DNA from: Deltaproteobacteria bacterium TL4
GTDB lineage: Bacteria; SAR324; NAC60-12
Assembly (NCBI GenBank): GCA_051382335.1
Contig: JBBCAX010000001.1
Location: 1-38,729, forward strand
Direction of reading: 5' to 3'
DNA: 38,729 nt
Below the pieces are notes generated by a model. That model had not been told where the DNA came from. It saw only the letters and a program-made list of their open reading frames with translations, and made no database searches. Below, in pieces: positions 5,193 to 37,804 of the stretch (position 1 is the first letter of the stretch; each line of letters opens with the position of its first letter). A program made the position numbers and the translations under genes.

Positions 5193-5807
5193 TTAACGTG
5201 CGAGGTATTCCACAAATAAATGGTCATCAACCAAAATGGGAATTTCTGCTCTTTCAGGAAGTCGAATCAGTCGCCCTGAAAAATTAGCGGTATCTCGCTC
5301 AAGGTAAGGCAGGTTCGGTACAAAAAACTGGAACCACTCCTTATAGCGTTCAACTTTTTGGTCTTTTTCACGAAGCTGAATCACATCACCGGGCATGACT
5401 TGAATGCCTGGCTTATTAACATTTTTCCCATTAACCAAAAAATGCCGATGAACAACCATTTGCCGTGCGGCTCTAAGCGAACCCGAAAATCCTAAACGAT
5501 GGACAATACTATCCAAACGTGTTTCAAGAGTCTGCACCATCAGCACGTTTGTTTGTCCTCGTGCTTTGAGCGCCTCAGTGAAGTAACGACGTGCCTGCTT
5601 GGAAGAAATCCCATAGTACGCTCTAAGTTTCTGGGTTTCCAGTAATTGTAACGCATATTGCGTTACTTTTTGACGACGATTCGCACCATGTTGCCCAGGA
5701 GGATTCGGACGACGTCCAATAGGACAATTCACCGCGCCACAAACCGAGAGCCCCAAGCGGCGACAGGTTTTATGTCGGAATACTAATTTATTTGCTTCTT
5801 TTGTCAT
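5193..5807 (-). CDS. rpsD: 30S ribosomal protein S4 (stand-alone copy)
   Basis: PPGQHG, YALQLLETQKLRAYYG, LETRLDSIVHRLGF, ARQMVVHRH..VNG..V..P, S4 C-terminus; SD-like GGGGAAAGG upstream. Confidence 0.95.
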   Translation of the reverse strand: MTKEANKLVFRHKTCRRLGLSVCGAVNCPIGRRPNPPGQHGANRRQKVTQYALQLLETQKLRAYYGISSKQARRYFTEALKARGQTNVLMVQTLETRLDSIVHRLGFSGSLRAARQMVVHRHFLVNGKNVNKPGIQVMPGDVIQLREKDQKVERYKEWFQFFVPNLPYLERDTANFSGRLIRLPERAEIPILVDDHLFVEYLAR

Positions 5808-9956: not shown

Positions 9957-9964
9957 GTTGTTCC

Positions 9965-11524: not shown

Positions 11525-11525
11525 G

Positions 11526-13010: not shown

Positions 13011-13198
13011 GCTTTTCTCCCTCAACTGTAGTGGGTGTGTGTTTAATTAGGGGCCGTTTTGTCGGGGCATGTTGACTTATAACACATTCATACCGAAAAA
13101 AATAGACATCTTTACCTAAATAAACGCTGGAATCATGCGCCATGAGGATACCTGCAAACCCGCTAAAATTCAGGCTATATTTGGGAAAGAGGTCTATT

Positions 13199-21400: not shown

Positions 21401-22478
21401 CATCGAGCACGCGAAACTGTTGTATGGGTTGGAACAGCAAGTTCAGCAACGAACTCATGAACTCAGTGCGTCGAATGATATTGTTGGACGGCAAAATCAG
21501 ATTTTCCGTTCCTTGCTTGAAACCAGTGCGTCCATGCATAAGATGCATGAATTGGAGCAATTCTTTCTGTATACCCTGAATCAACTGCAAACGCTTTTTT
21601 CCCATTGGGGCTTTGGTTTAATCATTCATGGAGAACGCGCGGAAATCGTACAGTTCGTCGCGTTCCAGGGAATTCCGGAAGCAGAACAGCAATTAATCTT
21701 AAAAAACGCGGCCAAGCTTTTGGACGAAAATGTGGAGCGCATGTTGAGTGACCTGCTGGCTCCGGACAATTCGCGTTTTATAAGGAAACGCGATGACGCG
21801 ATGCAAAAGTGGCTCTTGCTGCCGATGAATGGCCGCGAAAAAAGAATTGTGGGCAACTTGTTGATTAAAGGCCCCAAACTGGATCAATTATCCATCAAAA
21901 CGATTACTTTATTCCTGGAACAAGTCACCTCTGTCGCGGAAAATAAACTATTGACACAAGAATTGGAAAAACTGGCCAATACCGATGGATTGACCGGTAC
22001 CTATAACCGAACCTATTACATGACCGCCTTGCAGCGCATTATTCTGCAAGCGGAACATTATTCGGAGATGTATTTTTCAACACTCATGATTGATGTCAAT
22101 GGACTGAAAAAAGTGAACGATGTGTTTGGACATGAAGCTGGGGATGTGATGATTATAAAAGTCGCGGAACTCCTGAGGGAAGTTTGCCGTAAATCGGATA
22201 TCATCGTGCGTCTGGGAGGGGATGAGTTTGTCATTCTTTCACCGTCCACCGGATATCAGAGCGGACGGAAACTTTTAGAGCGCATACGAGAGCGTGAAAA
22301 ACACACCTTCCTTGAGTGTCCTCATAAAAATGGACAGGTTGAAACCCTTCCCGTTCATCTGAGTATCGGGCTTGCGAGCTCCGAAGATACGCCTCCCAAA
22401 GAAGTCATCAAGAAGGCCGATCATCTTATGTATCAGGACAAAGAAGCTTATTATACCACTCATGAACGCTATCGCTGA
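18414..22478 (+). CDS. Giant membrane diguanylate cyclase 2, full-length paralogue of the upstream gene
   Basis: Colinear with 14322-18383 (1354 vs 1353 aa); repeats at 18444, 19242 and 20037; RKSD-x5-GGDEF. Confidence 0.9.
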   Translation: MESIFRFDRLFPYGIPPLLTALACLFMVLLTIKSGRHNRENKLFAIICLMLFSYNVDFLCHIVLASKQIASIISQLNFMVLIFSVPMSVQLVHYLLGISHRRWLERLLYGVCFSLLPVTQTDLFISEGYDYYFGSFPEAQTGLYLYLVLGTLSGAYYLALLVLAYGNAQRREFKRKMFYVIIGFPVGWLMVAANMLTYSGFEIYPPSTYAFVPLSLMAYGLLQHSLFDTSQSFIKKGYLGSLLSYVVFVPLIMATIFVITSEAINFHDLPTLVERLFSHAFAPFVSLLTCMGLSIYCLSKGLRRVETILFGLICLLWGLLSLDRVLLFFILPGYESIAVQIVRTSHFFFVMQSALYLHFIYLTVQRTTLRMVLLYYALGFLFMPVTQTRFYFQETLLHYEFGLYPRGYWGIRLLGVFVTIALVWGSILIYRAWRSEHENNRKKQLYYIFIGLIVSGLLNLGSLPAALGIEFYPTGYFIFLPILIMAYGILRHNVLQINIYTKKRIFAEATKLVLFIGYGAPIPIAFWALEGLSLETLLNKAIPMGIPPLLSFISCLFLSILLLRLAQNLKEALLFSLISLVYGLVNLDLFFNMIVQDPLVGLQIVRWDQSFFVFIGGLGTHFSYTFLQKKSILPWVYLTYALGLISLPFIHTPYYFKGTYTYYWGYFPQSGILFDLICFIWFSGSAFIIYMIFQAYKSTVDFFQKQRIRVLFSGFLFATVLTVGDFPALHGIELYPLGAFIFIPVTFIIYSLFQQNPRESLKILRVVIFWVGVLLALWSAAILAENALVLDSFTLRQCLAIVLTLSLYSVVKNSWNTIIDLFIRNPEDDFRYKFYRLTDRLSQVRNLFELHKTLSSLIINEFYCIRYGILFYFTERRKFEGWEIWNQRLGVFSEEKEDKHPLGNAKMLYEAEPFIFKTFSMDTPLVPQKRFEEALLEQKVNSPLAQRLLQAELLQSVFFQEQLTCLLLLDPKIDNSPYTPDEKKILSQLGLILGPHIEHAKLLYGLEQQVQQRTHELSASNDIVGRQNQIFRSLLETSASMHKMHELEQFFLYTLNQLQTLFSHWGFGLIIHGERAEIVQFVAFQGIPEAEQQLILKNAAKLLDENVERMLSDLLAPDNSRFIRKRDDAMQKWLLLPMNGREKRIVGNLLIKGPKLDQLSIKTITLFLEQVTSVAENKLLTQELEKLANTDGLTGTYNRTYYMTALQRIILQAEHYSEMYFSTLMIDVNGLKKVNDVFGHEAGDVMIIKVAELLREVCRKSDIIVRLGGDEFVILSPSTGYQSGRKLLERIREREKHTFLECPHKNGQVETLPVHLSIGLASSEDTPPKEVIKKADHLMYQDKEAYYTTHERYR

Positions 22479-22650: not shown

Positions 22651-22851
22651 ACAAAATCAAATTTATAATCTTGATTACAAAGGATTTGCGGTGAAATGAG
22701 GAACTTTTTTACTCATTTCGAGTGGTTTGTTTAAATATTTCTTGTGTGTTCTTTTGCCCGGGAATATAAAGGCCCCCAAGTAGAATTAGAGAAATAATTC
22801 ATGGCACTTCATCGTAGTCATCATAAAACAAACGAGTCCAAGGGGGAATTT

Positions 22852-25800
22852 ATGCTTAACATTCCAGGTTATCAGATATCAGGTCAGATCCATCAAGATT
22901 CCTCGAAAATACTTTATAGGGGTGTCTATAACGATAAGAACGTTGTTCTTAAAGTCTTGAGACATCTTTCTGCGGTACAGGCCTTGAACCGTTTGACTCA
23001 TGAGTTTGAACTTCTGACGCACCTGAGTGAACTGGCCCCTGTCATCACTCCTTTAGCCTTGGAAAAAAAGGGAAGTGAACCCGCGCTGGTTTGGGAAGAC
23101 TGGGGGGGGCATTCTCTTAAGGCCGTAGTTCGCTCTCAGCTTAGCGACATTCAACAGGATGATTTTTTCTTACTGACCAAAGACAACAGCCTCAGCATTA
23201 ACCTGCAAATGGTCTTGGAAATTGCCATTCAACTCGCGAAGAATTTGGAGATGATTCATCAATCGGAAGTGATTCATCAGGGCATCAATCCCCACAATAT
23301 TTTTTACAATCATCTCACACAACAAGCGTATTTCATCGACTTCAGTCAAGCCTGCCTGACTTCCAAAGAACCGTCGAGCTTGGTAAATTTTGATTGGAGC
23401 GAGGAATGTTTAGCCACCATGTCTCCTGAACAAACGGGGCGAATGAATCGGTCTGTAGATTACCGAACCGATATCTACTCCTTTGGTATGATCCTCTATG
23501 AGTTGCTGGTAGGGACACCCGCCTTTCAAGCAACGACGCCCATTGAGTGGTTTCATCAGCATCTCGCTAAAACACCTCGGGCTCCGCATGAACACGATGC
23601 CTCCATCCCCTTGTTTGTGTCTGCGATTGTGATGAAGTGTCTCTCGAAAACCCTGGAAGACCGCTATCAGAGCGCTTATGGCCTCAGAGTTGATTTGGAA
23701 GACTGTCTGACTCAGTGGAAAAATCAAACCTTAAAGGAGCCGTTGACCCCCGGGCAGCACGATCGCTCCAGTCGCTTTGAAGTTTCTAAAAAAGTCTATG
23801 GCCGTCAGAAAGAAAGAATCCAGTTAATATCCGCCTTCGAACGGGCAAGTCGTGGAGGAACGGAAATTTTACTCATCAACGGAAATCCAGGGATCGGCAA
23901 ATCAACCTTGGTTTATGAAATCAATAAAACTATTTTACAAAGACAAGCCTATTTTACGACGGGGACGTGTGCCCTGTTACATCAACATTCCCCTTACTAT
24001 GTTTTAAGACAAGCGTTACAAAGACTGGTGCAGCAACTCTTGATGGAAGAACCGCAACAGCTTTCCCTGTGGCGAGAAAAGATCCTTGACGCAATTAGTC
24101 CTCATGCGCCCTTGATGCTTGAGATGATTCCCGCTTTGGAATTAATTATTGGTCCACAACTCAGAGGAACCACAGTTTCTGTTGAGAATGCCCCTAATCC
24201 TCTGCCCTGGGTTCTTCATCATTTTTTCAAAGCCCTTACATCTCATAAACATCCCTTGGTGCTCTGTTTAGAGAATCTGCAATGGGTGGATTCCGCTTCA
24301 ATCCAATTCATCGAGGAACTCTGCCTTGAGAACTTACCCTGCTTCCTGATTATTGGGGTTTATCGGGAAAATGAGGTGGGGATAGCCCATCCCCTGTTGA
24401 TTGCGTTTAATGAGGTATTGAGTCAGGGCGGCAGTCTAAAAACCATTCGACTTTCCTCCTTACAATTACCAGAAATTCAACAACTCTTGATGGATACGTT
24501 TCAGTGTTCCGCAAACGAGGTTTTGTCTCTGGCAGAGTTATGTTTGGAAAAAACCAATGGAAATCCTCTTTTCTTGAATCAATTTCTGCAATTACTCCAT
24601 GCTGAAAAAATGATTACCTTCAGTGGCGAACGGTGGTTATGGACTTTGGATGAAATTAAAAATTTGGAAGTCACCAACAATGTCATTCAGTTGATGATTG
24701 ACAAAGTCCATAAGTTTTCTCTGACTACTCAAAAAACTCTGCAATTTGCGGCCTGTATCGGAATGCAGTTTGATTTAAATACCCTGGCGATTGTGAGTGA
24801 GCAAAGTCAACAGCAAACAGCGATGGCTCTTTGGAAAGGCGTTAAAGAAGGGCTCCTTGTTCCGCGGGACACGGGGTATCGTTCTTTGGAAGCGAACCCG
24901 GAGCACTCGGTTGCGTACCACTTCCTTCACGATCAGATCCAGCAGGCGATCTATTCCATGGTGGAAGAAGGGCATCCTCAAAAGATACATAAGGCGATTG
25001 GTCAACTTTTACTTTCGACACTCAACGAAAAGCAACGTGAAGAGCAGTTATTTGATATTGTCCACCATCTAAACCAGGGCACGGCCTTTTTAAAAGCACC
25101 TCAGGAAAAAAAGCAATTAGCCGAATTAAATCTGGCGGCCGCAGAGCGATCCCTGTCCGCGGGAGCGTATGAGTCCGCCTATCGTTTTTTGAAACTGGGA
25201 ATTGTCTTATTGAACGAGCAAAGTTGGCAAGAGGACTATGCCCTGTGTTTGGACTATTATTTAAAAGGGGTACGAGCCGCGTCTTTAATAAATAATGAGC
25301 CGCAAAGGGAGCAATGGTCCACTGAGGCCTTGAGACATATTACGAATTTGTTAGATCAGATCGCGTTTTATGAAATACAAATTCAATCCCTCATTGCCAG
25401 AAATCAATTCAATCAAGCGCTGGAGACAACCTTGACGACGCTTTCTCTTCTGGGTGTCCCTTTTTCCAACCCACCTTCACCGTGGGATATCTTTGGGAGT
25501 TTGTTAAAAACAAAATGGATGTTTAAATGGAAATCCCTGACGCAGTTTGAAACCTTACCCCAAATGGAAGACCCGCATCAATTGGCAATTATGAAAATTT
25601 TATCCAGTGCGGTCAATTTAAGCTTTATGACAGTACCGGCGTTGTATGTTTTGTTTACTTTGAAGATGATTGAACTCTCCTGGAAATACGGAAACGCCCC
25701 TTCCACCGCCTACGGTTATGCCTGTTACGGGATGGCGCTTTGCGGATTTCAGGAGGATCCCCAAACAGGTCAGTCCTGGGGACAACTGGCCTTAAAAATG

Positions 25801-28800
25801 TTGGAAAAATCGGCTCCTAATGAATTCGCGTCCAAAATCATTTTTACCTATCATGCCTTCATTTCCCATTGGGGGCAGTCTCTAAAAGCAAGCTGTGACG
25901 GACTGTTGTCAGGGCACAAACCGGGGCTGGATTCAGGGGATTTGGCCTATGCCTCCTTATCCGCGTTTAGTTATTGTGCCTATCACTTTTTGTCAGGAGA
26001 AAAACTTTCAATCCTGGAGCAGGAAATGCTTCATTACCACCAAGTGCTTTCAAAGTTGAAACAAGAACAAACCTTGGTGCTGATGCGTTTATTTATGCAA
26101 ACGGTCTCCAATCTAAAAAGCCTGGAGGGCAAACCTCAGCACTTACAAGGCCCTTGGTATCATGAAAACAAAATGGTCCCCTTACAACTGAAACAGAATG
26201 ACCAGCATGGGTTGAGCAGTTACCATTGTCTGATGACCTTTCTCTGCTATCTTTTTCAACAACCGCGTGAGGCTTTGGAATATGCCAATCTGGCAAGTCC
26301 ACACCTTGACAGTCTCTCAGGAACCGCGGTTGTTCCCCTGTATTACCTCTATGACTCCTTATCCCGCTTGGCGCTCTATCCGGAACTGTCCGCTCTTGAA
26401 AGACAGCAGGCCTTAATGAAAGTAAAATGGAATCAAAAAAAGCTTAAAAAATGGTATAAGCTTAATTCTGATAATTTCGCACAGAAATATTATCTGGTTG
26501 AGGCGGAACAAAAAAGAGTTTTAGGTCGGAGGCCAGAGGCCAGAACGGCCTACGATCTGGCCATCAATCACGCCCATTACAATGGGTACCTGAATGATGA
26601 AGCGTTGGCCTACGAGCTGGCGGGACAATTCTTTTTGTCGCAAAACAACCGCCCTCTTGCCCAAACCTATCTTCAACAGGCGTATCACACCTATTCGCTC
26701 TGGGAAGCCTGGGCCAAGGTCAAACACTTGGAAGCTCAATACCCTGATTTTGCGTTTCAGAACAGTTACGCTGCCTCAAATAACCCGTCATTGGAGCCAA
26801 GGGTTCCTCATCAAATAGTGGATCTCGCTAGTGTTATTAAGGCGTCTCAGGCGATTTCAGAACAGATTGAAACGGGCGAGTTGTTGGCACACATGCTCCC
26901 TATCGTGATCGAAAACGCGGGGGCACAAAGAGGTGTCTTTGTGCTGATTGAAAATAACCAGCCTGTGATGCAAGCTTATGGCTCAAACCTGGATGATATT
27001 GAGGTGATCCATACTCAAAATCTGGAGTCGGACACGCCTCTCTCCCCCTCGCTCATCCCGCTTTCAATCGTTAATCTTGTTTCCAGAACACGGGAACCGG
27101 TTATTGTCGATGATGTGAGCCAGGAAGCGGCATATTATCATACCGATACTTACTTCATCCATCATCAAACCAAGTCTGTTTTATGTGCTCCGGTTCTTCA
27201 TCACAATAAATTGAGAGGCCTCCTCTATCTGGAAAGTAATGTTCGCTCTGTCTTCACTTCGGAACGAGGCGATATGCTTCAGTTTTTATTGGGACAGGTC
27301 GCGATTTCCCTGGATAACGCAAATCTTTACACCAACGTCAAAGACTCTTTAAAACGTTTGCAGCAAGAAATTGAACATCGTCAAAACGCTGAGAAAAGAG
27401 TCCGAGAAGGTCAGGCGCTGTATCAGATGCTGGTTGAAAACATGAGTGAGGGGCTGGGGCTTCAGAATGAAGAGGGGCTTGTTACCTATGTCAACGATAA
27501 ACTCTGCGCCATTACCGGATACTCCCGTGAACAGATCGTGGGGTTTCCGATGTCTCAGCTCTTGAGTCCTGGTTCTAATCAGACGGTGAGTTCACGGAAA
27601 ATTGAGGCAGACCCTGGAAAATCCAACCGTTTCGAAATGGTAAGCGCTCATAGAAACGGGGGCAACCTCGAAATTCTTGTTTCGACATCTCCGATCTATG
27701 ATGATCAAAAAAAGGTGATCGGCTCGCTGGCGGTGATTACGGATATTACGGAACGAAAGAAACTTGAAAAACAATTAGTTCAATCCCAAAAAATGGAGGC
27801 AATCGGTACGCTTTCAGGAGGAATTGCCCATGATTTCAATAATATTCTGGGAACCATGATGGGCTTTGCGGAAGTTCTTAAAGAACGGTTTACTGAAGAT
27901 ACGATCGAGTATCAATTGCTGCATAAAATTGATCAGGCCGGAGCAAGAGGTGCCGACTTAGTGAAGCAACTCTTAACCTTCAGTCGTCGCAATCAAACAA
28001 AATTACAACCGTTGAATGTCCTTCCAATCGTCAAAGAAACCTTGAAGATGCTTCATGAAACCATTCCTTCAACAGTTGAAATCAAAACCATTATACCTCC
28101 CCAGTGTCCTGAAATTTTTGCGGATCTCACTCAATTTCAACAGATCCTCATCAATTTATGTATGAACGCCGTACAAGCGATGGAGAAACAGGGAGGGTGT
28201 TTGACGGTTCAACTGGAAACGGTTGAAAATTCTGAGGTTAGTAGCGCCGCCAATTCAACAGCAAACGACTGTTTGAAACTCATCGTGCAGGATTCTGTTT
28301 ATGGAAAACATCCTGCTGATCGTGAATTTGAGGCTATCCCTCAACGCTCTCTTCTCGACGGAAATAAAGGAATTGGCTTAGCCATTGTTCATGGAATTGT
28401 AGAACAGCATCATGGGGAAATGGTTGTCGAAAGTGAGATTGGAAAAGGAACAACCATCAGTATTCTCTTTCCTGGTGTAGACCGTTCTTCAGCGTCTGAG
28501 GTTGAGCTTTCCTCAAGAGAACTCCCTCAGGGAGGAGGGCATATTTTGATTATTGACGATGAGCCTGATTTTCTCAATTATTTGAAACAGGCCTTGACGG
28601 GAAAAGGGTATCAAGTCACGGATCATCGTGATTGTTTGCAATGTATTGATGATTTTCGTAAACACCCAGAGGTCTTTGACTTAATCATTACCGATTTGAC
28701 CATGCCGCTTATGGATGGGGTTCAACTGAGCAAAGAACTGAAATCAATCCGCGGGGATATTCCCATTATTCTAACCACAGGGTTTGATACCCTTTACAGT

Positions 28801-28917
28801 GAAGCGGAATTAGCAAGCGTTGGCATCAAACTGATTCTGCGCAAGCCGATACGTATGGTTGATTTGCTCCAAGAGGTGCAACAACTGTTATTTGAATCTA
28901 TGTCTCTGTCCCCTTGA
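22852..28917 (+). CDS. Multidomain signalling protein: Ser/Thr kinase-like - AAA/STAND ATPase - helical region - GAF - PAS - HisKA - HATPase-like - REC
   Basis: MSPEQTGRMNRSVDYRTDIYS, GNPGIGKST, KT.GNPLF, FLHDQIQQA.Y, ENAGAQRG GAF, PAS, AHDFNN, DLIITDLTMP; SD AGGGGGA before ATG 22852. Confidence 0.9.
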   Translation: MLNIPGYQISGQIHQDSSKILYRGVYNDKNVVLKVLRHLSAVQALNRLTHEFELLTHLSELAPVITPLALEKKGSEPALVWEDWGGHSLKAVVRSQLSDIQQDDFFLLTKDNSLSINLQMVLEIAIQLAKNLEMIHQSEVIHQGINPHNIFYNHLTQQAYFIDFSQACLTSKEPSSLVNFDWSEECLATMSPEQTGRMNRSVDYRTDIYSFGMILYELLVGTPAFQATTPIEWFHQHLAKTPRAPHEHDASIPLFVSAIVMKCLSKTLEDRYQSAYGLRVDLEDCLTQWKNQTLKEPLTPGQHDRSSRFEVSKKVYGRQKERIQLISAFERASRGGTEILLINGNPGIGKSTLVYEINKTILQRQAYFTTGTCALLHQHSPYYVLRQALQRLVQQLLMEEPQQLSLWREKILDAISPHAPLMLEMIPALELIIGPQLRGTTVSVENAPNPLPWVLHHFFKALTSHKHPLVLCLENLQWVDSASIQFIEELCLENLPCFLIIGVYRENEVGIAHPLLIAFNEVLSQGGSLKTIRLSSLQLPEIQQLLMDTFQCSANEVLSLAELCLEKTNGNPLFLNQFLQLLHAEKMITFSGERWLWTLDEIKNLEVTNNVIQLMIDKVHKFSLTTQKTLQFAACIGMQFDLNTLAIVSEQSQQQTAMALWKGVKEGLLVPRDTGYRSLEANPEHSVAYHFLHDQIQQAIYSMVEEGHPQKIHKAIGQLLLSTLNEKQREEQLFDIVHHLNQGTAFLKAPQEKKQLAELNLAAAERSLSAGAYESAYRFLKLGIVLLNEQSWQEDYALCLDYYLKGVRAASLINNEPQREQWSTEALRHITNLLDQIAFYEIQIQSLIARNQFNQALETTLTTLSLLGVPFSNPPSPWDIFGSLLKTKWMFKWKSLTQFETLPQMEDPHQLAIMKILSSAVNLSFMTVPALYVLFTLKMIELSWKYGNAPSTAYGYACYGMALCGFQEDPQTGQSWGQLALKMLEKSAPNEFASKIIFTYHAFISHWGQSLKASCDGLLSGHKPGLDSGDLAYASLSAFSYCAYHFLSGEKLSILEQEMLHYHQVLSKLKQEQTLVLMRLFMQTVSNLKSLEGKPQHLQGPWYHENKMVPLQLKQNDQHGLSSYHCLMTFLCYLFQQPREALEYANLASPHLDSLSGTAVVPLYYLYDSLSRLALYPELSALERQQALMKVKWNQKKLKKWYKLNSDNFAQKYYLVEAEQKRVLGRRPEARTAYDLAINHAHYNGYLNDEALAYELAGQFFLSQNNRPLAQTYLQQAYHTYSLWEAWAKVKHLEAQYPDFAFQNSYAASNNPSLEPRVPHQIVDLASVIKASQAISEQIETGELLAHMLPIVIENAGAQRGVFVLIENNQPVMQAYGSNLDDIEVIHTQNLESDTPLSPSLIPLSIVNLVSRTREPVIVDDVSQEAAYYHTDTYFIHHQTKSVLCAPVLHHNKLRGLLYLESNVRSVFTSERGDMLQFLLGQVAISLDNANLYTNVKDSLKRLQQEIEHRQNAEKRVREGQALYQMLVENMSEGLGLQNEEGLVTYVNDKLCAITGYSREQIVGFPMSQLLSPGSNQTVSSRKIEADPGKSNRFEMVSAHRNGGNLEILVSTSPIYDDQKKVIGSLAVITDITERKKLEKQLVQSQKMEAIGTLSGGIAHDFNNILGTMMGFAEVLKERFTEDTIEYQLLHKIDQAGARGADLVKQLLTFSRRNQTKLQPLNVLPIVKETLKMLHETIPSTVEIKTIIPPQCPEIFADLTQFQQILINLCMNAVQAMEKQGGCLTVQLETVENSEVSSAANSTANDCLKLIVQDSVYGKHPADREFEAIPQRSLLDGNKGIGLAIVHGIVEQHHGEMVVESEIGKGTTISILFPGVDRSSASEVELSSRELPQGGGHILIIDDEPDFLNYLKQALTGKGYQVTDHRDCLQCIDDFRKHPEVFDLIITDLTMPLMDGVQLSKELKSIRGDIPIILTTGFDTLYSEAELASVGIKLILRKPIRMVDLLQEVQQLLFESMSLSP

Positions 28918-28933
28918 ACACGATGTAATTTTA

Positions 28934-31900
28934 ATGATTAAAAAAAGTGATATTCAGGATATCTACAGTTTATCTCCAATGCAGCAGGGGATGTTGTTTC
29001 ATGCCATGTATGAGCAGGAACTGTTGTTATATTTTGAACAGTTTGTTTATCGTTTTTATGGAAAACTCAACCTCCAACACTTTCAATCCGCCTGGAATGA
29101 ACTGCTCAAACGGCATGATATTTTCCGCTCGATTTTTGTAACCAAGAATGTCCCTGAGCCTTTGCAGCTTGTGCTCAAAGCCCGTGAGCTTGAGTTTGAG
29201 TTTGAAGATCTTTCCTTCCAAAACCAAAGTGAGCGTGAAGCCTATCTCAACTCTTTTTTGCTCAAAGACCGTCAACGTTATTTTAGGCTGTCCTCCGAGG
29301 TGATGCTGAGGGTTTCTGTGTTTCGTCTGGATGAAAATACCCATACCGTCGTTTTGAGCTGCCACCATATCATTGCCGATGGCTGGTCTTTAGGACCCCT
29401 GATGACGGAACTGTTTCAGTGCTATCAGGCCTTTCAAAAAGGAATAACTCCCGCTTTGTTTCCCGCACCTCAATATAAAGCCTACATTCAATGGCTGGGC
29501 AAACAGGATCAAGCAATTTCCAAAAAATATTGGCAGAATTATCTGGCCGATTATTTAAAACTCAGCACACCTCCCGGACGTCTGGCTGGCTCAAAACATG
29601 AAACCAAAACGGTCGCGCGACATCAGGTGACTTTAAACGCAACTCAGGTCCAGGCGCTGCAAAAGATTGCGGTTCAAGCGGAAGTAACCTTGAATACTCT
29701 GTTTCTCGCTTTTTGGGGAATTGCGTTAGCTCAATACAATGATGCTGAGGATGTGGTATTCGCGGCTACGGTTTCAGGAAGACCCCCTGAACTTCTCAAT
29801 GTTGAAAACATGCTTGGATTGTTCATCAACGCTGTCCCTGTGAGAGTCAAAATAGCCCCCAAGGCTACGTTTCCAGAATTGGCGCGAACCCTTCAAAAAG
29901 ACGCGCGAAACAGTGAGCCTCATCATTATTACTCTTTGGCGGATATTCAGGGAGAAACCCTTCTGAAACAAAAACTTCTGGATCATTTAATCACGTTTCA
30001 AAGTTATCCCCTGGACCAGGCCTTTGCTGAAAAATTAGAACGGGAGTTGGGACTTCGGATTGAACAAACGGCGTCTTTTGAAAATATTAATTACGATTTT
30101 AATATTCTGCTGTTACCTGAAGGCCAGCAATTGAGTATTGTTCTTTGCTATAACCATGCGTTGTACGACTCAGCACAGATCCACACTATTGGAAATCACC
30201 TTTCTTACCTGATTGACTCCATCATCAACGAGCCTTCACGCACGTTAGCGTCACTGGAACTGATCGCGAAAGATCAACGGGAGCAAATCCTGCAAACGGC
30301 CCCGCATCCTTCAGCCTTCTCGCACTTTTGGGGCAGAACGTATGAGGACGCAACCGATGAAGATTCCAAAGTTTATGTTTTGGATCACTTGCTTCGACTC
30401 TCACCTGAAGAAACTCTGGGACGGATTTATCTGAGTGTAAGGAAAGACTCCACTCTCACGGAATACGCTGCTGTTGAAAGTCCTTTTTCTTTAGAATCGA
30501 AGCTCATTAAAACGGATTTCATAGGACTAAGACAAAGGGATAACAAGCTCAAAGTCCTTGGACCGTATGCTGCTTATGAGCAAATGAAAATAAGTCAGGG
30601 AGAATGGTTGGCATTCCCCTCCAAGGCCATGCCTTGTGTGCTTTGCGCCACGTTCACCGCAGATCCTTTTGTTCCCTATCTCGAGTGGTGGCTGAAACAG
30701 TTTGAGCTTGAAGTCTCCGGCCTCCTCGCCCCCTATAATCAAGTGTTTCAACAACTTCTGAACGCGGATAGTGTTTTACGGCAAAACGAGGGACTTAACC
30801 TGATTCTGGTACGTTTTGAAGATTGGATACGGGATTTGGCGTTGGAAACGGATCAGGCTTATGTGAATCATTTGGATCAACATTATTGGCAACTGGTGGA
30901 GGTCATCCAACAGAATTTCGCGGCAGTCACCTTTGTCGGCGTTTTTCCGGTTTCAAAGCACTTGTCTCTCAGCTCAAAGGTCAAAAATAAAATCAGTGAG
31001 TTGAACACCGCTTGGAAAACGTTTTTGTCAAACTCAGAACGCTTTCATTTACTCGATTTTGAACAGGTGGAAACGCTCTATGAGCTGGAAGAAATATTTG
31101 ATCGTCAAAAAGATCAGACCGGGCATCTCCCCTTTTCCGATGAATATTTCGCGGCAGCGGCAACATACGGGGCTAGACAGATTCTTGCCTGGAAAAAACC
31201 TCATTTTAAGGTGATCGCTGTGGATTGTGACAATACCTTATGGAACGGCATTGTTGGGGAGTCGGGTTTGAAGGTGCGGGTTGAGCATGAATATCTGTGG
31301 CTACAGCAGTTTCTTATTGACCGACATCAGGAAGGCTGGTTGATAGTGCTTTGCAGCAAGAATAGCGAAGAGGATGTCTGGGAAGTTTTTGACAAGCATC
31401 CTGACATGCTTCTCAAGCGCGAACATATCGTGGCTCATCGGATCAACTGGGAAAGAAAATCCCGGAATATACGGGAAATGGCAAAAGAACTCAACTTGGG
31501 AGTCAACAGTTTTATTTTCCTGGATGACAGCACTGCGGAGTGCAGTGAAGTCATGCATCATTGTCCCGAGGTCTTAACGTTGTTGCTGCCTCAATCTCCT
31601 TCGCATTTTCCTTCTTTTTTAAAACACGTATGGGCTTTTGACAAATTTCAAGTCACGGACGAAGACCGCAACCGCTCCGCAATGGTTGTGGCAGAAAAAC
31701 AACGGCAGGAACACTCCGAAGCCTTGTCCCTGGAGGACTTCTTAAAAAGTTTGGAGTTGAAAGTCTGGATGAATCCGGTCCAACCCCAGCAGATCGACCG
31801 TGTCGCGCAATTGACTCAACGGACCAATCAGTTTAATTTGAGTACCCTCAGAAGAACCTCCCATGAAATTGAAAAATTGCTCCAGGATGACCATCACCAA

Positions 31901-34900
31901 GGCTGGTCGGTTCATGTTAAAGATAAATTTGGTGATTATGGTCTCGTTGGGGTCGTGATTGCCCGTAAAGAAACAGGGTCCTTGTATTTGGATAGTTTTT
32001 TGCTGAGTTGCCGTGTTTTGGGACGGGAGGTGGAAACCGCTATTTTATCAGGCTTAAGAAAATTTTGTCTTGAAAATCAACTGAAGCACATCGACGCGGA
32101 TTTTAGACCAACCCCTAAAAACCAACCCATGCGTCAAGCCTTGGCTAAAGCCAACTGGCAAATACTTCAACAAACTCCTGAGCAAACACGTTATCAAATC
32201 TCAACAGCTCAACTCCCGGAAAAAGTGGAGCAAATCACGTTTTTCTACAACGAAGCGTTTGAATCCGCACCCATTGTTCCTGAGAAATCAAAGGAACCCA
32301 AGGTTTCTCATAAAACAGAACCCCCGAGGGAGGCGGCATCATCCAGGAAAATGGGGAATCAACATGGGTGGAAGGTCTTATTGACACTGAATGAGAATCA
32401 GGAACATAAAGCTTATTACCTCCCCCTTTTACATCATGAAACCACAGCCCTGATGTCTCTCGCTATTGAAGAACACGAGGCTCAACGCTCAACTCGTTCC
32501 TATGTGGCACCCAGGGATGAAACGGAGGAAAAATTAGTGGACCTCTGGAAAAAACTGTTGAAGCGGGAACTGCTTGGCATTGAAGATGACTTTTTTGATT
32601 TGGGCGGACACAGCTTAACCGCGACACGCTTGGTTTCCAGAATTTATAAAATCTTTGAGGTAGAGTTAGGCTTGAAAGAAGTTTTTGATCACCCGACTAT
32701 CTCACAGTTAAGCTCCTTGATTCAACAAAAAATCACCCTCGGATATCACTCAATTGAGGTGGTTGAGGCACAGGAATATTATGAATTGTCTCACGCGCAA
32801 AAACGCTTATGGGTTCTGAGTCAATTTCAGGATAACGCATTGGTCTATAATATTTCAGGCGCGTTTTTACTTGAAGGAAGTTTGAGTACAGAAAAATTGA
32901 AATTTGCCTTTCAACAATTAATAGAACGTCATGAATCATTGAGAACGACCTTCCTCACTGTTGACGGAGAACCCAAGCAGAAGATCCATTCAAACGCTGA
33001 ATTTCAACTCAAGGAACTTGATGAACGTTCTGCGGAGGATCCCTTGGCTCAGGCAAAATTAGTGGTGTCTCAAGAATTTGAAAACCCGTTTGATTTGGAA
33101 AACGGCCCCTTAATCCGTGGAACCTTACTGACTCTGAACGAAAGTCAATGGGTCTTTCTGTTGTCGATGCATCATATCATTTGCGATGGCTGGTCCTGGG
33201 GGATTCTCGTTAACGAAGTTTTTAAACTCTACAACGCCAGTCTTCAGCGGCAGAACGAAACGCTGGAACGTTTAGGTATTCAGTACAAAGACTATGCGGT
33301 TTGGCAAAATCAACTTTTAGACACACCCAATATTCGAAAAGACCGGGAGTATTGGCATCAGAAATTATCAGGGGAATTACCCTTGCTGGATCTTCCTTCA
33401 GATTTTCCACGCCCGCCTACGATTTCTCATGAAGGAAAAAAATTACACTTTCAGCTCAGTGAAGCACTGACCGCAAGTCTTCATCAACTATGCGGCAAGT
33501 ACCAGGTCAGTCTGTTTATGGCCTTGCTGGGGTTGATCAAAGTTCTGCTCCATCGTTATACAGGGCAGGAGGATCTCATCATCGGTTCTCCAATCGCGGG
33601 ACGGAATCATCCTGATCTTGAAGCTCAAGTCGGATGCTTTGTCAATACACTGGCTTTACGGGATACGATCAAAGGCACCGATACGTTTGCGGACGTCTTG
33701 CGAAAGATGAAACAAACAACAACCGAAGCCTATAACCATCAGCTTTATCCTTTTGACAAACTGGTGGAAGAACTGGAAATTCCACGTTATACGGATAGGA
33801 CTCCTGTTTTTAATGTGATGGTGGTTTTGCAGAATCAGGATATGTTTCAGCCTGAAATCGAAGGACTTTCCATTGCTCCTTTCCTGGAATTTGAAAGCAT
33901 CAGCAAGTTCGATTTGAATCTTCATTTTACTGAAGTCGGTTCCATCCTTAACGCGTCCATTGAATACCGAACCGATTTATTCCAGGAATGGCGTATGCTG
34001 CAACTCTGGACGCATTTGGAACAGTTACTTCACAGTGTGCTTTTGCTTCCAAAAACCGATGGCCGTCATATTCAGCCGCCGATTCGTTCCTTGTCGTTAT
34101 CCTCACAAAACGAAGTCGCGAAAATGCTGGAAACGTTCAATCAAACCAGGGTTTCCTTTCCCGAAACAATCACGATTCTTGATTTATTCGCAAAACACGT
34201 AGCACAGCAGCCCAAAGCGATCGCGGTCGCTTATGAAGAACAACAACTCAGCTATGAGGAGTTAGACGCTTACAGTCATCAGGTGGCACAACATATCATG
34301 GCCAGAGGGATTCAGCCCAAAACATTGGTTGGCTTATTTTTAGAACGTTCCCTGGAGATGCTGGTTGGCATGTTAGGCATCCTTAAATCCGGTGCGGCCT
34401 ATGTTCCGATTGACCCGCTATTGCCTTTAGACAGAATCCGCTTTATTCTCAACGATACTCAAGCGTCTCTGGTTGTCACTCAATCGGCAATGAAACACAA
34501 GCTTCCTGCCATCCCCATCCAGATCCTTTGTTTGGATACGGACCTCAGTGAAAAAGACACACACTCCGCACACAAATTGCCAACGGTTGTGCCTGAAGAT
34601 TTGGTGTATGTGCTGTTTACTTCTGGAACAACAGGACAGCCCAAAGGAGTTCAAATTGAGCACAGGCAACTGTTCAACTATCTTTGTGCCATTCAACAAC
34701 GCCTGGCCTTGCCGGAAAAAGCGAATTACGCGACGGTTTCCACTTTTGCCGCGGATCTGGGAAACACGGTAGTTTTTCCTTCGTTATGCGGTGGAGGATG
34801 TCTGCACATCATTTCTCAAAACCGGATTACGGATCCTGACGCGCTTGCTGAATATTTCAACCGGCATTCGATGGATGTGCTTAAAATCACCCCTTCTCAC

Positions 34901-36652
34901 TTAAAAGCTCTGTTAAACGCGGAATTTCCTGAAAACGTTCTGCCAAGAAAACGCCTGATTCTGGGGGGAGAATCCGCTCCTTGGGATTTAATTCGAGAAG
35001 TCCAGCGCCTCCGTCCAGAGTGTCGTCTGTTGAATCATTATGGACCCACTGAAACAACAGTCGGTGTATTGACTTATGACCTAACCCCTCAATCGCCCCA
35101 TGCTTATTTATCCGCTGTCCCTTTGGGAAAACCACTTGCCAATGTGGAAATCTATATTCTGGATCCTTATCTTCAGCCTGTACCGATAGGTATTCCCGGT
35201 GAGCTTTATATTGGAGGCGCAGCCCTGGCACGTGGTTATTTGAATCGTGAGGAATTGACGCAGGAAAAATTTATGGGACATCCCTTTAAAGCCAAAGCCC
35301 GCCTTTATAAAACGGGAGACTTGGCCCGCTATTTACCTGACGGCAATGTGGTGTTTCTGGGGCGGGTTGATGATCAGGTAAAAATCCGGGGATATCGGGT
35401 CGAACTCCGGGAAATCGAGCAGTGTTTGAAGCAACAGGAACAAATCGATGCCTGTGCTGTGATCGTTAAAGCCAACGCCAACAAGGAAAGTGAGATCTAC
35501 GCTTATTTGACGGGAAAAGGGACAATCAACATGAAAGAGGTCAAAAACGCTTTAAAGAAAAGTCTCCCGGAATATATGATTCCCGCTCAGATGCTGCAAT
35601 TGGAAAAAATTCCTCTCAACGCCAATGGCAAAGTGGATCGAAAAGCCTTACCGGAGATTGCGCTGACTTCGCTTGAGCCTTCAAAAAAAGTTCAGCCTGT
35701 TACAGAAACAGAAAAACAACTGGCGCTACTGTGGGAAGAAGTTTTATCCAACAAGGAGCTTGGCAGGGATGACAACTTTTTTGAAAGAGGCGGAAATTCA
35801 TTAAAGGCGATTAAACTGATCACAAAAGTCAGGGCCGCCTTCAAAGTGCCGATTTCCTTAACGCTGATTTATCAAAAACCTTCTCTCCGGGAAATGGGTG
35901 AATATTTGTCAGCACCCTCCAAGAACGCCCCGGTTTTCAAACAGGAACTTTCCTTTTTGCTCAACCAGGAAGGTGAGCGGAAACTGTTCTGCTTTCCTGA
36001 TATTTCAGGCTATGGCCTGCTTTACAAAAACCTCGCCGATCAGCTTGAGGCTTATGCGTTGTACGCTTTTAATTTTAGAAAAACAGCAAACACGATCGCT
36101 GACTATGTACAGTCTGTCCTGCAAATCCAACCGGAAGGTCCTTACCAGCTTTTTGGCTATTCCGCAGGCGGAAATCTGGCCTTTCAAATTGCCAAAGAAC
36201 TCACCAAACAAGGAAAAGCGGTTTCGGATCTGATTTTGCTGGATTCCAGACGCAGAGTGGAACCGGACGCTTATTCCGAGGAAGATCTAGAGTGGTTGAT
36301 CCACCATTACTTAGCGGCTAAAATTGAGGAAATCCACGAAAATTCAGAGCTCAGGAACGAGTTCAAACACGTCATCACTCAATACGCCCAATTTCTGTCT
36401 GAGCACCTGGAACAGGGGACGATTCCCTCCCGTATCCATTTAATTCGATCCACGGATCCGAATCACGATCCTCACGCAGAACGCTGGGATCAGGTTACTG
36501 AAGGGCCGTTTGCCCTCTATCGTGGTTACGGCAGTCATTTCGAAATGCTGCAACCGCCCAACCTATCGCGAAATATTGCTATTTTGAAAAAGATCTTGCT
36601 AACGATACCTAAACGGGAAAGCATTCAAAATCAAAAAGTCAATTTGTCCTAA
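28934..36652 (+). CDS. Non-ribosomal peptide synthetase C-[A remnant]-FkbH-T-C-A-T-TE
   Basis: C domains HHIIADG and HHIICDG; FkbH HAD motif DCDNTLW, CSKN, FLDDS, QLTQRTNQFN, LLSCRVLGR; T domains GGHSL and GGNSL; A domain FTSGTTGQPKG, NHYGPTE, YKTGD, NGKVDR; TE GYSAG; ATG 28934 is 16 nt after the upstream stop. Confidence 0.95.
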   Translation: MIKKSDIQDIYSLSPMQQGMLFHAMYEQELLLYFEQFVYRFYGKLNLQHFQSAWNELLKRHDIFRSIFVTKNVPEPLQLVLKARELEFEFEDLSFQNQSEREAYLNSFLLKDRQRYFRLSSEVMLRVSVFRLDENTHTVVLSCHHIIADGWSLGPLMTELFQCYQAFQKGITPALFPAPQYKAYIQWLGKQDQAISKKYWQNYLADYLKLSTPPGRLAGSKHETKTVARHQVTLNATQVQALQKIAVQAEVTLNTLFLAFWGIALAQYNDAEDVVFAATVSGRPPELLNVENMLGLFINAVPVRVKIAPKATFPELARTLQKDARNSEPHHYYSLADIQGETLLKQKLLDHLITFQSYPLDQAFAEKLERELGLRIEQTASFENINYDFNILLLPEGQQLSIVLCYNHALYDSAQIHTIGNHLSYLIDSIINEPSRTLASLELIAKDQREQILQTAPHPSAFSHFWGRTYEDATDEDSKVYVLDHLLRLSPEETLGRIYLSVRKDSTLTEYAAVESPFSLESKLIKTDFIGLRQRDNKLKVLGPYAAYEQMKISQGEWLAFPSKAMPCVLCATFTADPFVPYLEWWLKQFELEVSGLLAPYNQVFQQLLNADSVLRQNEGLNLILVRFEDWIRDLALETDQAYVNHLDQHYWQLVEVIQQNFAAVTFVGVFPVSKHLSLSSKVKNKISELNTAWKTFLSNSERFHLLDFEQVETLYELEEIFDRQKDQTGHLPFSDEYFAAAATYGARQILAWKKPHFKVIAVDCDNTLWNGIVGESGLKVRVEHEYLWLQQFLIDRHQEGWLIVLCSKNSEEDVWEVFDKHPDMLLKREHIVAHRINWERKSRNIREMAKELNLGVNSFIFLDDSTAECSEVMHHCPEVLTLLLPQSPSHFPSFLKHVWAFDKFQVTDEDRNRSAMVVAEKQRQEHSEALSLEDFLKSLELKVWMNPVQPQQIDRVAQLTQRTNQFNLSTLRRTSHEIEKLLQDDHHQGWSVHVKDKFGDYGLVGVVIARKETGSLYLDSFLLSCRVLGREVETAILSGLRKFCLENQLKHIDADFRPTPKNQPMRQALAKANWQILQQTPEQTRYQISTAQLPEKVEQITFFYNEAFESAPIVPEKSKEPKVSHKTEPPREAASSRKMGNQHGWKVLLTLNENQEHKAYYLPLLHHETTALMSLAIEEHEAQRSTRSYVAPRDETEEKLVDLWKKLLKRELLGIEDDFFDLGGHSLTATRLVSRIYKIFEVELGLKEVFDHPTISQLSSLIQQKITLGYHSIEVVEAQEYYELSHAQKRLWVLSQFQDNALVYNISGAFLLEGSLSTEKLKFAFQQLIERHESLRTTFLTVDGEPKQKIHSNAEFQLKELDERSAEDPLAQAKLVVSQEFENPFDLENGPLIRGTLLTLNESQWVFLLSMHHIICDGWSWGILVNEVFKLYNASLQRQNETLERLGIQYKDYAVWQNQLLDTPNIRKDREYWHQKLSGELPLLDLPSDFPRPPTISHEGKKLHFQLSEALTASLHQLCGKYQVSLFMALLGLIKVLLHRYTGQEDLIIGSPIAGRNHPDLEAQVGCFVNTLALRDTIKGTDTFADVLRKMKQTTTEAYNHQLYPFDKLVEELEIPRYTDRTPVFNVMVVLQNQDMFQPEIEGLSIAPFLEFESISKFDLNLHFTEVGSILNASIEYRTDLFQEWRMLQLWTHLEQLLHSVLLLPKTDGRHIQPPIRSLSLSSQNEVAKMLETFNQTRVSFPETITILDLFAKHVAQQPKAIAVAYEEQQLSYEELDAYSHQVAQHIMARGIQPKTLVGLFLERSLEMLVGMLGILKSGAAYVPIDPLLPLDRIRFILNDTQASLVVTQSAMKHKLPAIPIQILCLDTDLSEKDTHSAHKLPTVVPEDLVYVLFTSGTTGQPKGVQIEHRQLFNYLCAIQQRLALPEKANYATVSTFAADLGNTVVFPSLCGGGCLHIISQNRITDPDALAEYFNRHSMDVLKITPSHLKALLNAEFPENVLPRKRLILGGESAPWDLIREVQRLRPECRLLNHYGPTETTVGVLTYDLTPQSPHAYLSAVPLGKPLANVEIYILDPYLQPVPIGIPGELYIGGAALARGYLNREELTQEKFMGHPFKAKARLYKTGDLARYLPDGNVVFLGRVDDQVKIRGYRVELREIEQCLKQQEQIDACAVIVKANANKESEIYAYLTGKGTINMKEVKNALKKSLPEYMIPAQMLQLEKIPLNANGKVDRKALPEIALTSLEPSKKVQPVTETEKQLALLWEEVLSNKELGRDDNFFERGGNSLKAIKLITKVRAAFKVPISLTLIYQKPSLREMGEYLSAPSKNAPVFKQELSFLLNQEGERKLFCFPDISGYGLLYKNLADQLEAYALYAFNFRKTANTIADYVQSVLQIQPEGPYQLFGYSAGGNLAFQIAKELTKQGKAVSDLILLDSRRRVEPDAYSEEDLEWLIHHYLAAKIEEIHENSELRNEFKHVITQYAQFLSEHLEQGTIPSRIHLIRSTDPNHDPHAERWDQVTEGPFALYRGYGSHFEMLQPPNLSRNIAILKKILLTIPKRESIQNQKVNLS

Positions 36653-36718
36653 AAAATGTTTTTTAAGGATTTCTTTCAAAACGCTTTGATCAAGGGAAAA
36701 TTATGAAGTGTCCAGTAT

Positions 36719-36912
36719 CTCGACTTTGAACAATTTGCTCAATATTACTCCTGAATAAAATCAGAGACTTATAAAGTCGTATTAGAATTAATGATAGGTT
36801 TGGCCTGAAAAACGGGAAATAATAACCTTGCATTAATTCATTCATAAAATAAAACCACTGATATTATTGAATAATTAAAACTAAAACCATGAATCAAATG
36901 TTCAAAGTCCAG
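36719..36912. mobile_element. MITE family C with IHF-like sites
   Basis: Imperfect TIRs CT(C/G)GACTTTGAACA..TTTG at both ends; internal WATCARnnnnTTR match at 36759-36771 and an opposed near-match around 36850-36870. Confidence 0.65.
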
Positions 36913-36916
36913 CTTT

Positions 36917-37099
36917 TATAGATGTTCATTTAAATCTATTCAGAATGTATATTTTTGATGATCCATTTAATCGACTCATTATTAGGAGTGTCAAAGCTTG
37001 CTTTGACCAGAAAAGCCAAAGCTTTTCTTTTAATTTTGCCAAAGCAAGCTTTGGTACTCCACATTGATTCCAATGAATTTATTTAAATGAACGTCTATA
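36917..37099. mobile_element. MITE family A, copy 2
   Basis: Same ends as 6174-6367 (TATAGATGTTCATTTAAAT ... ATTTAAATGAACGTCTATA) and same internal GGAG-REP doublet (36985-37007, 37038-37060). Confidence 0.85.
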
Positions 37100-37232
37100 G
37101 GTGAAAATTATGTTTTGCTACCCATAATTTCATACCAAAAGAACACCATTTATGCTACCTCCATTAATTTGCAGAGACGACCAATAATTTCGTACTGGTG
37201 GATTCCTCCCCAAATAAAACATGTTCAAATAC

Positions 37233-37296: not shown

Positions 37297-37551
37297 ATGA
37301 GAGTAGTTAATTTTAGTGAAGCACGAAACAATTTAAAATCGGTTTTGGATCAAGTTTCAGATGATGCTGATTATACAGTCATCACTCGTAGAGACTCACA
37401 AGACGCTGTTGTCATGTCTTTAGAGACATTTAATAGCTATATGGAAACGTTTCATCTTCTTCGTTCTCCCGCAAATGCATCTCATTTAGCAAAATCCATT
37501 GAACAGTACAAAAATGGAAAAATTCATGAAAGAGAGTTAGTGAATGAGTAG
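37297..37551 (+). CDS. yefM: YefM/Phd family antitoxin
   Basis: NFSEARNNLK.VLD.V..D, VITRR...AVVMSL, MET.HLLRSPANA.HL; SD AGGAGG. Confidence 0.95.
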   Translation: MRVVNFSEARNNLKSVLDQVSDDADYTVITRRDSQDAVVMSLETFNSYMETFHLLRSPANASHLAKSIEQYKNGKIHERELVNE

Positions 37552-37804
37552 AAAACTAGCATGGACAGATGAAGGATGGGATGGATATATTTACTGGCAA
37601 TCTCAAGATAGAAAAACATTGAAAAGAATTAATAAGCTGATTGAGGATTCCAAACGACAACCTTTTGAAGGTATAGGAAAACCCGAACCATTAAGAGAAA
37701 ATCTATCAGGCTTTTGGTCAAGAAGAATTGATGACACAAATCGTTTGGTTTATGCGGTTGATGATGAATTTATTACAATTATTTCATGTAGGTACCATTA
37801 CTAA
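37544..37804 (+). CDS. yoeB: YoeB/Txe family mRNase toxin
   Basis: Y.YWQ.QDRKTLKRINKLI, PFEGIGKPEPL, WSRRIDD.NRLVY, C-terminal CRYHY. Confidence 0.95.
   Translation: MSRKLAWTDEGWDGYIYWQSQDRKTLKRINKLIEDSKRQPFEGIGKPEPLRENLSGFWSRRIDDTNRLVYAVDDEFITIISCRYHY

Follow-up and report, generated by a model that had tools for sequence, protein, structure and literature searches.

An FkbH-containing nonribosomal peptide synthetase of a SAR324 bacterium is probably the terminal subunit of a dispersed cystomanamide-type line

The window, a DNA stretch of 38,729 nt from Deltaproteobacteria bacterium TL4 (SAR324), is the whole contig C1 of the respective genome (G000; 6.59 Mb, 445 contigs). On its forward strand, from position 28934 to 36652, a single open frame without internal stops encodes a nonribosomal peptide synthetase (NRPS) of 2572 amino acids (aa). 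Pfam and NCBIfam profiles identified two condensation (C) domains, an FkbH domain, two PP-binding carrier (T) domains, an AMP-binding adenylation (A) domain with its C-terminal subdomain, and a thioesterase (TE). A sequence-only reading had described the gene as a candidate stand-alone synthase of an acyl-glyceryl-aspartate aminolipid or signal molecule, with signaling genes as its neighbors. We find that it very probably encodes a terminal subunit of the type of CtmD of cystomanamide synthetase, and that genes for likely partner subunits are scattered over other contigs. The features of the window are listed in Table 1.

All catalytic motifs regarded as intact by the sequence-only reading are present in the translated frame, i.e. 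HHIIADG (residue 144) in the first C domain (C1), DCDNT (764) and SCR (1025) in FkbH, GGHS in the first T domain (T1), HHIICDG (1413) in the second C domain (C2), GGNS in the second T domain (T2), and GYSAGG (2408) in the TE, for which Asp2437 and His2535 are further candidate residues. The FkbH domain (aa 758-1073) scores about 297-302 bits against TIGR01686 (cut-off 147) and has the DxDxT and catalytic Cys motifs of a glyceryl transferase, which are unchanged in 14 of 14 aligned sequences. Its N-terminal extension (FkN) matched no Pfam family at an E value of 0.05. Between C1 and FkbH, a segment of 66 residues (aa 478-543) scores 7.2 bits against the A-domain profile, compared to 1.1 bits for the best of 200 shuffled sequences; this agrees with the replacement of an A domain, of which the segment is likely a trace, by FkbH. 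Neither this fragment nor the DCL type of C1, with its TycB-like N-terminus, had been mentioned in the sequence-only reading. The gene (7.7 kb) contains no multicopy repeat, and a promoter scan was uninformative (23 sites versus 21.7 in shuffles).

Table 1. Features of the window and the observations on which they are based.
Feature	Position	Strand	Basis or remark
Probable NRPS terminal subunit, C(DCL)-[A remnant]-FkbH(N+HAD)-T-C(LCL)-A(Asp-type)-T-TE, 2572 aa	28934..36652	+	collinear with C. fuscus AID65225.1
N-terminal docking-type segment and DCL-type C1 (HHIIADG, aa 144)	28934..30292	+	PF00668 at 28955-30292; PDB matches; trees
Degenerate, likely adenylation-domain remnant (A6-A8 region)	30365..30562	+	hmmsearch; weak ApnA A1 match, E 0.064
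FkbH N-terminal extension (FkN), conserved	30626..31204	+	36-50% identity in relatives
FkbH glyceryl transferase/phosphatase domain (DCDNT, SCR)	31205..32152	+	TIGR01686
Carrier domain T1 (Ser1227)	32528..32722	+	PF00550
LCL-type condensation domain C2	32771..34060	+	sister of AID65225.1 C2 in 25-row tree
Adenylation domain, DLTKIGHVGK, Asp-type	34187..35632	+	motif-anchored code; unlike Tyr-like code of most relatives
Carrier domain T2 (Ser2289)	35705..35902	+	93%-identical DNA copy of T2 and TE start on contig C312
Thioesterase (GYSAGG)	35978..36577	+	PF00975
Ribosomal protein S4 gene, apart from other ribosomal genes	5193-5807	-	
Apparent operon: DUF3336-patatin, PEMT/ICMT-like membrane protein, cNMP-PAS hybrid histidine kinase, ABC1 kinase	6550-13025	-	
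Tandem diguanylate cyclase paralogues, 1353/1354 aa	14322-18383, 18414-22478	+	54% identical
Ser/Thr kinase-AAA-GAF-PAS-HisKA-HATPase-REC hybrid	22801-28917	+	one of 10 paralogues in G000
196-bp multicopy repeat, inverted ends	36717..36912	.	also interrupts partner NRPS copy C138/C199
Two adjacent short multicopy repeats, inverted ends	36717-37100		74 and 133 genome matches
YefM-YoeB toxin-antitoxin pair	37297-37804	+	
DDE_3 transposase, cut by contig end	38053-38729	-	

C domains that follow an epimerization (E) domain are of the DCL type and accept a donor with a D-residue (PMC8949500). The best PDB matches to C1 are BacC (bacitracin synthetase 3), TycB (tyrocidine synthetase 2), and SrfAC (entries 9rde, 9bfd_B, 8f7h, and 2vsq; E values of 5e-94 to 1.5e-85), and the alignments begin at residues 3-6. 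The E value was 3e-25 for an LCL domain of TycC, and 6e-5, 0.05, and 0.07 for CDA-C1 (4jn3), 7c1h, and EntF, respectively, which we take to be starter-type structures. By this comparison, C1 does not resemble acyl-CoA-using starter (lipo-initiation) C domains. Trees were calculated for the C domains of the proteins gathered in this analysis, which were classed by their context. In a quick tree with 81 rows, C1 is among the 21 of 24 N-terminal C-FkbH domains that side with all 14 after-E domains, while both C domains from FAAL-T-C-FkbH contexts (n=2) are found on the opposite side. In a careful tree with 25 rows, hand-picked from the 81 and not including VioA and ComK, C1 groups with six of six after-E domains, with a support of 100/100. 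Forcing C1 together with the two available FAAL-T-C-FkbH rows costs 262 log-likelihood units and is rejected by the approximately unbiased (AU) test (p-AU 4e-82), which was set up after the quick tree had been viewed. C1 is a DCL-type domain, not an acyl-starter domain.

The sequence-only reading had assigned to C1 the esterification of a fatty acyl group onto glycerate, as in vioprolide synthesis. A precedent exists, as vioprolide and corramycin synthesis use a FAAL-ACP-C-FkbH-T starter, the C domain of which forms the ester (PMC8949500, PMC10099666), and a FAAL followed by an acyl carrier protein (ACP) domain is also encoded in G000, on contig C43. However, the latter is fused to a polyketide synthase (PKS) module, and no FAAL-ACP is present on the window protein or elsewhere in the window. 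C1 lies outside the clade of C domains following FAAL-ACP (p-AU 4e-82; two such rows) and scores poorly against starter structures, and the same subunit follows E-terminated NRPSs in relatives (see below). We thus rejected a vioprolide-type starter function of C1, and a stand-alone acyl-glyceryl-Asp synthase is a very improbable explanation of the gene.

The NRPS protein AID65225.1 of Cystobacter fuscus has the domain order C-FkbH-T-C-A(Tyr)-T-E-TE, i.e. the published layout of cystomanamide modules 4-5. To judge from organism and layout, it is presumably CtmD, the terminal subunit of cystomanamide synthetase (Etzbach et al. 2014, as tabulated in PMC9581180). The complete line is tabulated as (C-A-T-E)(C-C-A-T)(C-A-T-E)(C-FkbH-T)(C-A-T-E-TE), with a 3-amino fatty acid and the sequence Asn-Asn-Phe-GA-Tyr, GA being glyceric acid (PMC9581180). 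The window protein is collinear with AID65225.1 (37% identity over 1776 aa), and the identities are 40% for C1, 36% for FkN, 54% for FkbH, 45% for T1, 44% for C2, and 31% for the A domain. C2 is the sister of the C. fuscus C2 with a support of 98/97. Thus, C-FkbH-T, one amino-acid module, and a TE are united on one protein, the first C domain is of the DCL type, homology to the C. fuscus protein extends across C1, FkbH, T1, and C2, and E-terminated NRPS pieces occur in G000, at non-adjacent positions.

At least 2246 proteins, 1414-4501 aa in length, have the FkbH-T region in common, and 19 of the best 120 of these start with DCL-FkN-FkbH. Apart from the window protein, 14 of the remaining 18 have Tyr-like A-domain codes (DAST/DAAT), three have other codes, and one lacks an A domain; DAST/DAAT is presumed to specify Tyr, which agrees with the match to the published Tyr module. 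The C1 domains of relatives are 38-44% identical to that of the window protein. Of 87 further genomes from the same phylum, none yielded an orthologue of the subunit, and six had FkbH matches; those that were fetched are stand-alone or PKS-linked. A scan of metagenomes with P0016 yielded mostly generic NRPS loci, with a full FkbH in 2 of 73, plus L116, in which the gene is cut. No paper on this NRPS family was found in the literature searched, which lacked most subscription papers.

The family also includes deviating architectures. The protein at L122:3185-9541 has the order C(DCL)-T-C-A(Tyr-like)-T-E without FkbH, and its A-less module would need loading in trans. P0122 and P0124 end in an E and a further C domain rather than a TE, and many other members stop at the E domain, without a release domain. 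A second type of FkbH subunit, PKS...C-FkbH-T-C-A-T-E-TE, occurs in Thiotrichales at L101 (G041:C133) and L210 (G121:C18).

The A-domain code was read via motif anchors with PheA-style positions, and DLTKIGHVGK, extracted by hand in the sequence-only reading, was reproduced. Applied to other proteins, the script used here yields standard codes for Thr, Ser, Gly, and Asn, the assignments of which we presume. The exact code was not found in print, while the near-identical DLTKVGHVGK was, for Asp/Asn, mostly Asp (PMC12283262), and for OH-Asp (PMC10391617), in line with the earlier classification as Asp-type. In a comparison of 816 A domains, that of the window protein is 46% identical to an unrelated DLTK-code domain, versus at most 38% to any of 52 DAST/DAAT domains. 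The identity to the A domains of relatives is 31-39%, and to that of P0011 it falls to 21% across the substrate-binding part. This pattern fits an exchange of the A domain in the window gene.

The sequence-only reading had itself considered that the gene might encode the terminal subunit of an already known cluster split across the genome. The split line matches the data, the known cluster does not. As the code is Asp-type, an E domain is missing, and the upstream codes differ, the line would represent a variant, and cystomanamide synthetase proper, and hence a cystomanamide producer, was rejected.

The genomic organization in relatives was analyzed at 12 loci with Tyr-type subunits (L012, L116, L126, G089, G090, G092, G178, G181, G182, G187, G190, and G197), which are partly kin (seven are from Magnetococcia), so that the counts are not independent. 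An E-terminated NRPS is encoded directly upstream of the FkbH subunit in G090, and in G089 it is separated from the subunit by a DUF697 gene. L013, which is less closely related, likewise follows an E-terminated NRPS. The complete chromosome of G090 has one cluster with the order KS-AT-AMT-C-A-T-E, C-A(Thr)-T-C-A-T-E, C-FkbH-T-C-A(Tyr)-T-E, hydrolase, and FAAL-PKS (AMT, aminotransferase), which additionally contains DUF697, an exporter, and a type II thioesterase (TEII). In contrast, NRPS genes are absent from the first 7 kb or more ahead of the subunit in L012, L126, G178, G181, G182, G187, and G190, and the contig ends of L116, G092, and G197 are too near for an upstream view. An E-terminated NRPS was present at a second locus in all five Magnetococcia genomes searched. 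The four second loci that were fetched encode KS-AT-AMT-C-A-T and C-A(Thr-like)-T-C-A-T-E, and in G182 about 83 kb of the same contig separate the two loci. In the Thiomargarita genome G041, the E-terminated subunits are on other contigs amid housekeeping genes. An isolated chromosomal position is thus common for this subunit and does not imply that it acts by itself.

G000 contains the likely upstream parts of such a line on several contigs. C43 encodes DUF697, FAAL-ACP-KS-AT-DH-KR-ACP, and a KS-AMT protein, and on C342 a gene begins with the ACP-linker part found ahead of AMT. C122 (5257 bp; AMT end-C-A-T-C-A start) and C278 (1522 bp; A(Thr-type)-T-E start) are open end to end, and C199 contains half a C domain followed by A-T-E with a donor-type tail. 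The domains of a FAAL-PKS-aminotransferase start, which would give a beta-amino fatty acyl group, are present in fragments (C43, C342, C122). Read in this order, the C122, C278, and C199 pieces give three amino-acid modules, with Thr second and E last, as in relatives. Three amino-acid modules precede glycerate in G000, in G090, in the four fetched Magnetococcia genomes, and in cystomanamide. The GC content at third codon positions is similar for the window gene (0.465), C122 (0.462), and C199 (0.469). A cyclic-peptide exporter, SPFH, and DUF697 are encoded together on C137, and the same trio is found near the G182 line (40-42% identity); another cyclic-peptide exporter (C93), a TEII (C25), and an Sfp-like phosphopantetheinyl transferase (PPTase; C250) are encoded as well. 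Tailoring, export, PPTase, and ligase genes are absent from the window itself, as the sequence-only reading had noted. The DCL type of C1, the likely partner parts on other contigs, and the similarly split lines of relatives argue against its notion of a stand-alone enzyme.

Taken together, we propose, with a probability of roughly 60%, that the window gene encodes the terminal subunit of a cystomanamide-type lipopeptide line, acting in trans with scattered partners that still work. The FkbH domain of vioprolide synthesis reportedly loads glycerate from 1,3-bisphosphoglycerate, and by homology the window FkbH would load it from the same donor onto T1. The upstream subunits, as pieced together from the fragments on C43, C342, C122, C278, and C199, would make a beta-amino, polyketide-extended fatty acyl tripeptide (X1-Thr-aromatic?) with an epimerized last residue. 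The N-terminus of the window subunit would serve as docking site for the E-terminated donor, and C1 would link the D-residue to the hydroxyl group of glycerate; because the acceptor is glyceryl, an ester rather than an amide is expected. C2 would then add Asp before the chain would be released by the TE, probably in the form of the free acid. The predicted product is beta-amino-acyl-X1-Thr-D-X3-O-glyceryl-Asp. Of the X-O-glyceryl-Asp product suggested by the sequence-only reading, the glycerate loading, the ester formed by C1, and Asp as the last residue are retained on grounds of homology, and the acyl-lipid interpretation is abandoned.

Several observations weigh against this proposal. No partner adjoins the window gene or is assembled whole, and the KS-AMT protein on C43 lacks AT and ACP and ends beside a repeat. 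The sole visible third module (C199) is truncated at its N-terminus and fused to a piece of a Thr A domain. It is interrupted by the 196-bp repeat, which separates C138 and C199 as the two parts of a single copy; this copy also shows a short duplication of the target and a deletion in frame. G000 has 10 condensation matches, and neither the roughly 1.4 kb expected between the E start on C278 and the C half on C199 nor another copy of module 3 is among them. The partner pieces overlap as duplicates with 93-98% identity, which may be paralogues, strain variants, or a result of binning loss, and C312 carries a duplicate of T-TE with a truncated TE, cut by a repeat. The divergent A domain, the lost E domain, and the lost hydrolase neighbor (see below) characterize the window gene as a copy diverged from the family, and the designation of AID65225.1 as CtmD is itself our own.

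The broken copies, C138-repeat-C199, the KS-AMT protein on C43 without AT and ACP, and the TE copy on C312, could alternatively mean that the line is decaying, with an intact leftover terminal subunit, donors broken by repeats and deletions, and no product at present. The very numerous repeats in G000 and the lack of a synonymous excess in the duplicates (12 synonymous/13 non-synonymous and 4/6 codons; small counts) are compatible with decay. However, C122 and C278 are open throughout, C342 provides the ACP missing from C43, the window gene is free of internal multicopy repeats, exporter, TEII, and PPTase are retained, and relatives also show dispersal with long open frames. Decay appears less likely than a working line.

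The start codon of the NRPS gene is only 16 bp past the stop of the gene for the Ser/Thr kinase-AAA-GAF-PAS-HK-REC hybrid, and its A domain and C-terminus are unlike those of the family. Both would be compatible with a repurposed enzyme that needs no donor, in which FkbH starts on T1, C2 adds Asp, and the TE frees N-glyceryl-Asp, possibly under the control of the upstream kinase. We consider this improbable. C1 still has the catalytic motif and is 38-44% identical to its counterparts in relatives, features that would be needless for a donor-free enzyme, and donor-side genes are kept in the genome. The link to signaling neighbors made by the sequence-only reading also dissolves, as a histidine-kinase gene lies directly upstream in only one of the 12 relative loci (G187) and the window kinase is itself a multicopy gene in G000 (Table 1).

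A gene of the beta-lactamase family (PF00144) adjoins the subunit in nine of the 12 loci (L012, L116, L126, G090, G178, G181, G182, G190, and G197). In G187 the gene is cut, though probably also adjacent, and in G089 the distance is about 9 kb. No such gene is visible in G092, and none was found within L013. Several of these hydrolases have lipoprotein-like N-termini, as read from the sequence. Tyr and glyceric acid are present in cystomanamide B and missing in cystomanamide A (PMC9581180), and didemnins X/Y are a precedent for ester prodrugs (PMC10391617). The recurring neighbor and the cystomanamide A/B pair suggest that the ester tail may be cleavable in the family. The window copy has no PF00144 neighbor, and G000 has no close orthologue (best matches 22-27%), so that the idea may not apply to it. 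A tentative generalization, which we advance as a possibility with the odds against it, is that cystomanamide-type lipodepsipeptide lines made of dispersed subunits occur across phyla, that the glyceryl-amino-acid ester tail is a C-terminal pro-tag cleaved after export by the co-encoded hydrolase, and that the G000 line would be the most dispersed, and only Asp-tailed, version among those compared here.

The other genes of the window have signaling and housekeeping functions. The G1/F-box region of the hybrid kinase looks degenerate by eye, and its ATPase may be impaired. About 1000 N-terminal residues of the tandem diguanylate cyclases are without a confident Pfam family. The 196-bp repeat downstream of the NRPS gene has 74 genome matches, 25 of which are near full length and 41 at contig ends. 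Elsewhere in G000, a separate small cluster (C302:14491-21536) encodes an A-less C-T protein, KS-AT-T-TE, and an O-methyltransferase-like protein. Across phyla, members of the NRPS family are repeatedly accompanied by DUF697, and often also by an SPFH/Band 7 gene, at L189 (G000:C137), L199 (G182), L110 (G090), L113 (G089), and L115 (G092); no paper pairing DUF697 with NRPSs was found in the same literature. Further genes at the Magnetococcia loci L199-L200 (G182) encode a carbamoyltransferase, a KamA-like radical SAM protein, a PKS, and a stand-alone FkbH. For the carbamoyltransferase and the KamA-like protein, G000 has homologues (43% and 40% identity) on contigs C397 and C313.

Since the module type is published and common, the gene does not represent a novel way of making a phosphorus-free lipid. 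It is, however, a natural variant of the terminal subunit, Tyr-to-Asp and without E, that is useful for testing ester-forming DCL domains, and a clear case of an NRPS line spread over many loci, in which the isolated gene misleads as "stand-alone". The hydrolase neighbor and the difference between cystomanamides A and B make the cleavable-tail model directly testable. If that model and the wide occurrence of dispersed lines are true, such lines would escape cluster-mining tools.

Three known systems are closest to the window protein. The DCL domains after E in TycB, SrfAC, and BacC are the best solved-structure matches to C1, aligned from the first residues, but form amides with aminoacyl acceptors, whereas C1 would form an ester with a glyceryl acceptor. 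Vioprolide and corramycin synthesis share with the window protein an FkbH that loads glycerate in place of an A domain and a preceding C domain that forms an ester; there, however, the line begins with a fatty acyl-ACP that serves as donor in cis, while the window C1 is DCL-type, N-terminal, and at the end of the line. The likeness to cystomanamide synthetase comprises the same order of an N-terminal DCL-type C, FkbH with N-extension, T, LCL C, A, T, and TE, a preceding C-A-T-E module, three amino-acid modules before glycerate, and FAAL/aminotransferase start genes, in fragments, in G000. In contrast to cystomanamide synthetase, the window subunit has an Asp-type instead of a Tyr-type A domain, no E before the TE, and an A remnant, and the partners in G000 are unclustered and partly broken, with different upstream residues (Thr-type at position 2).

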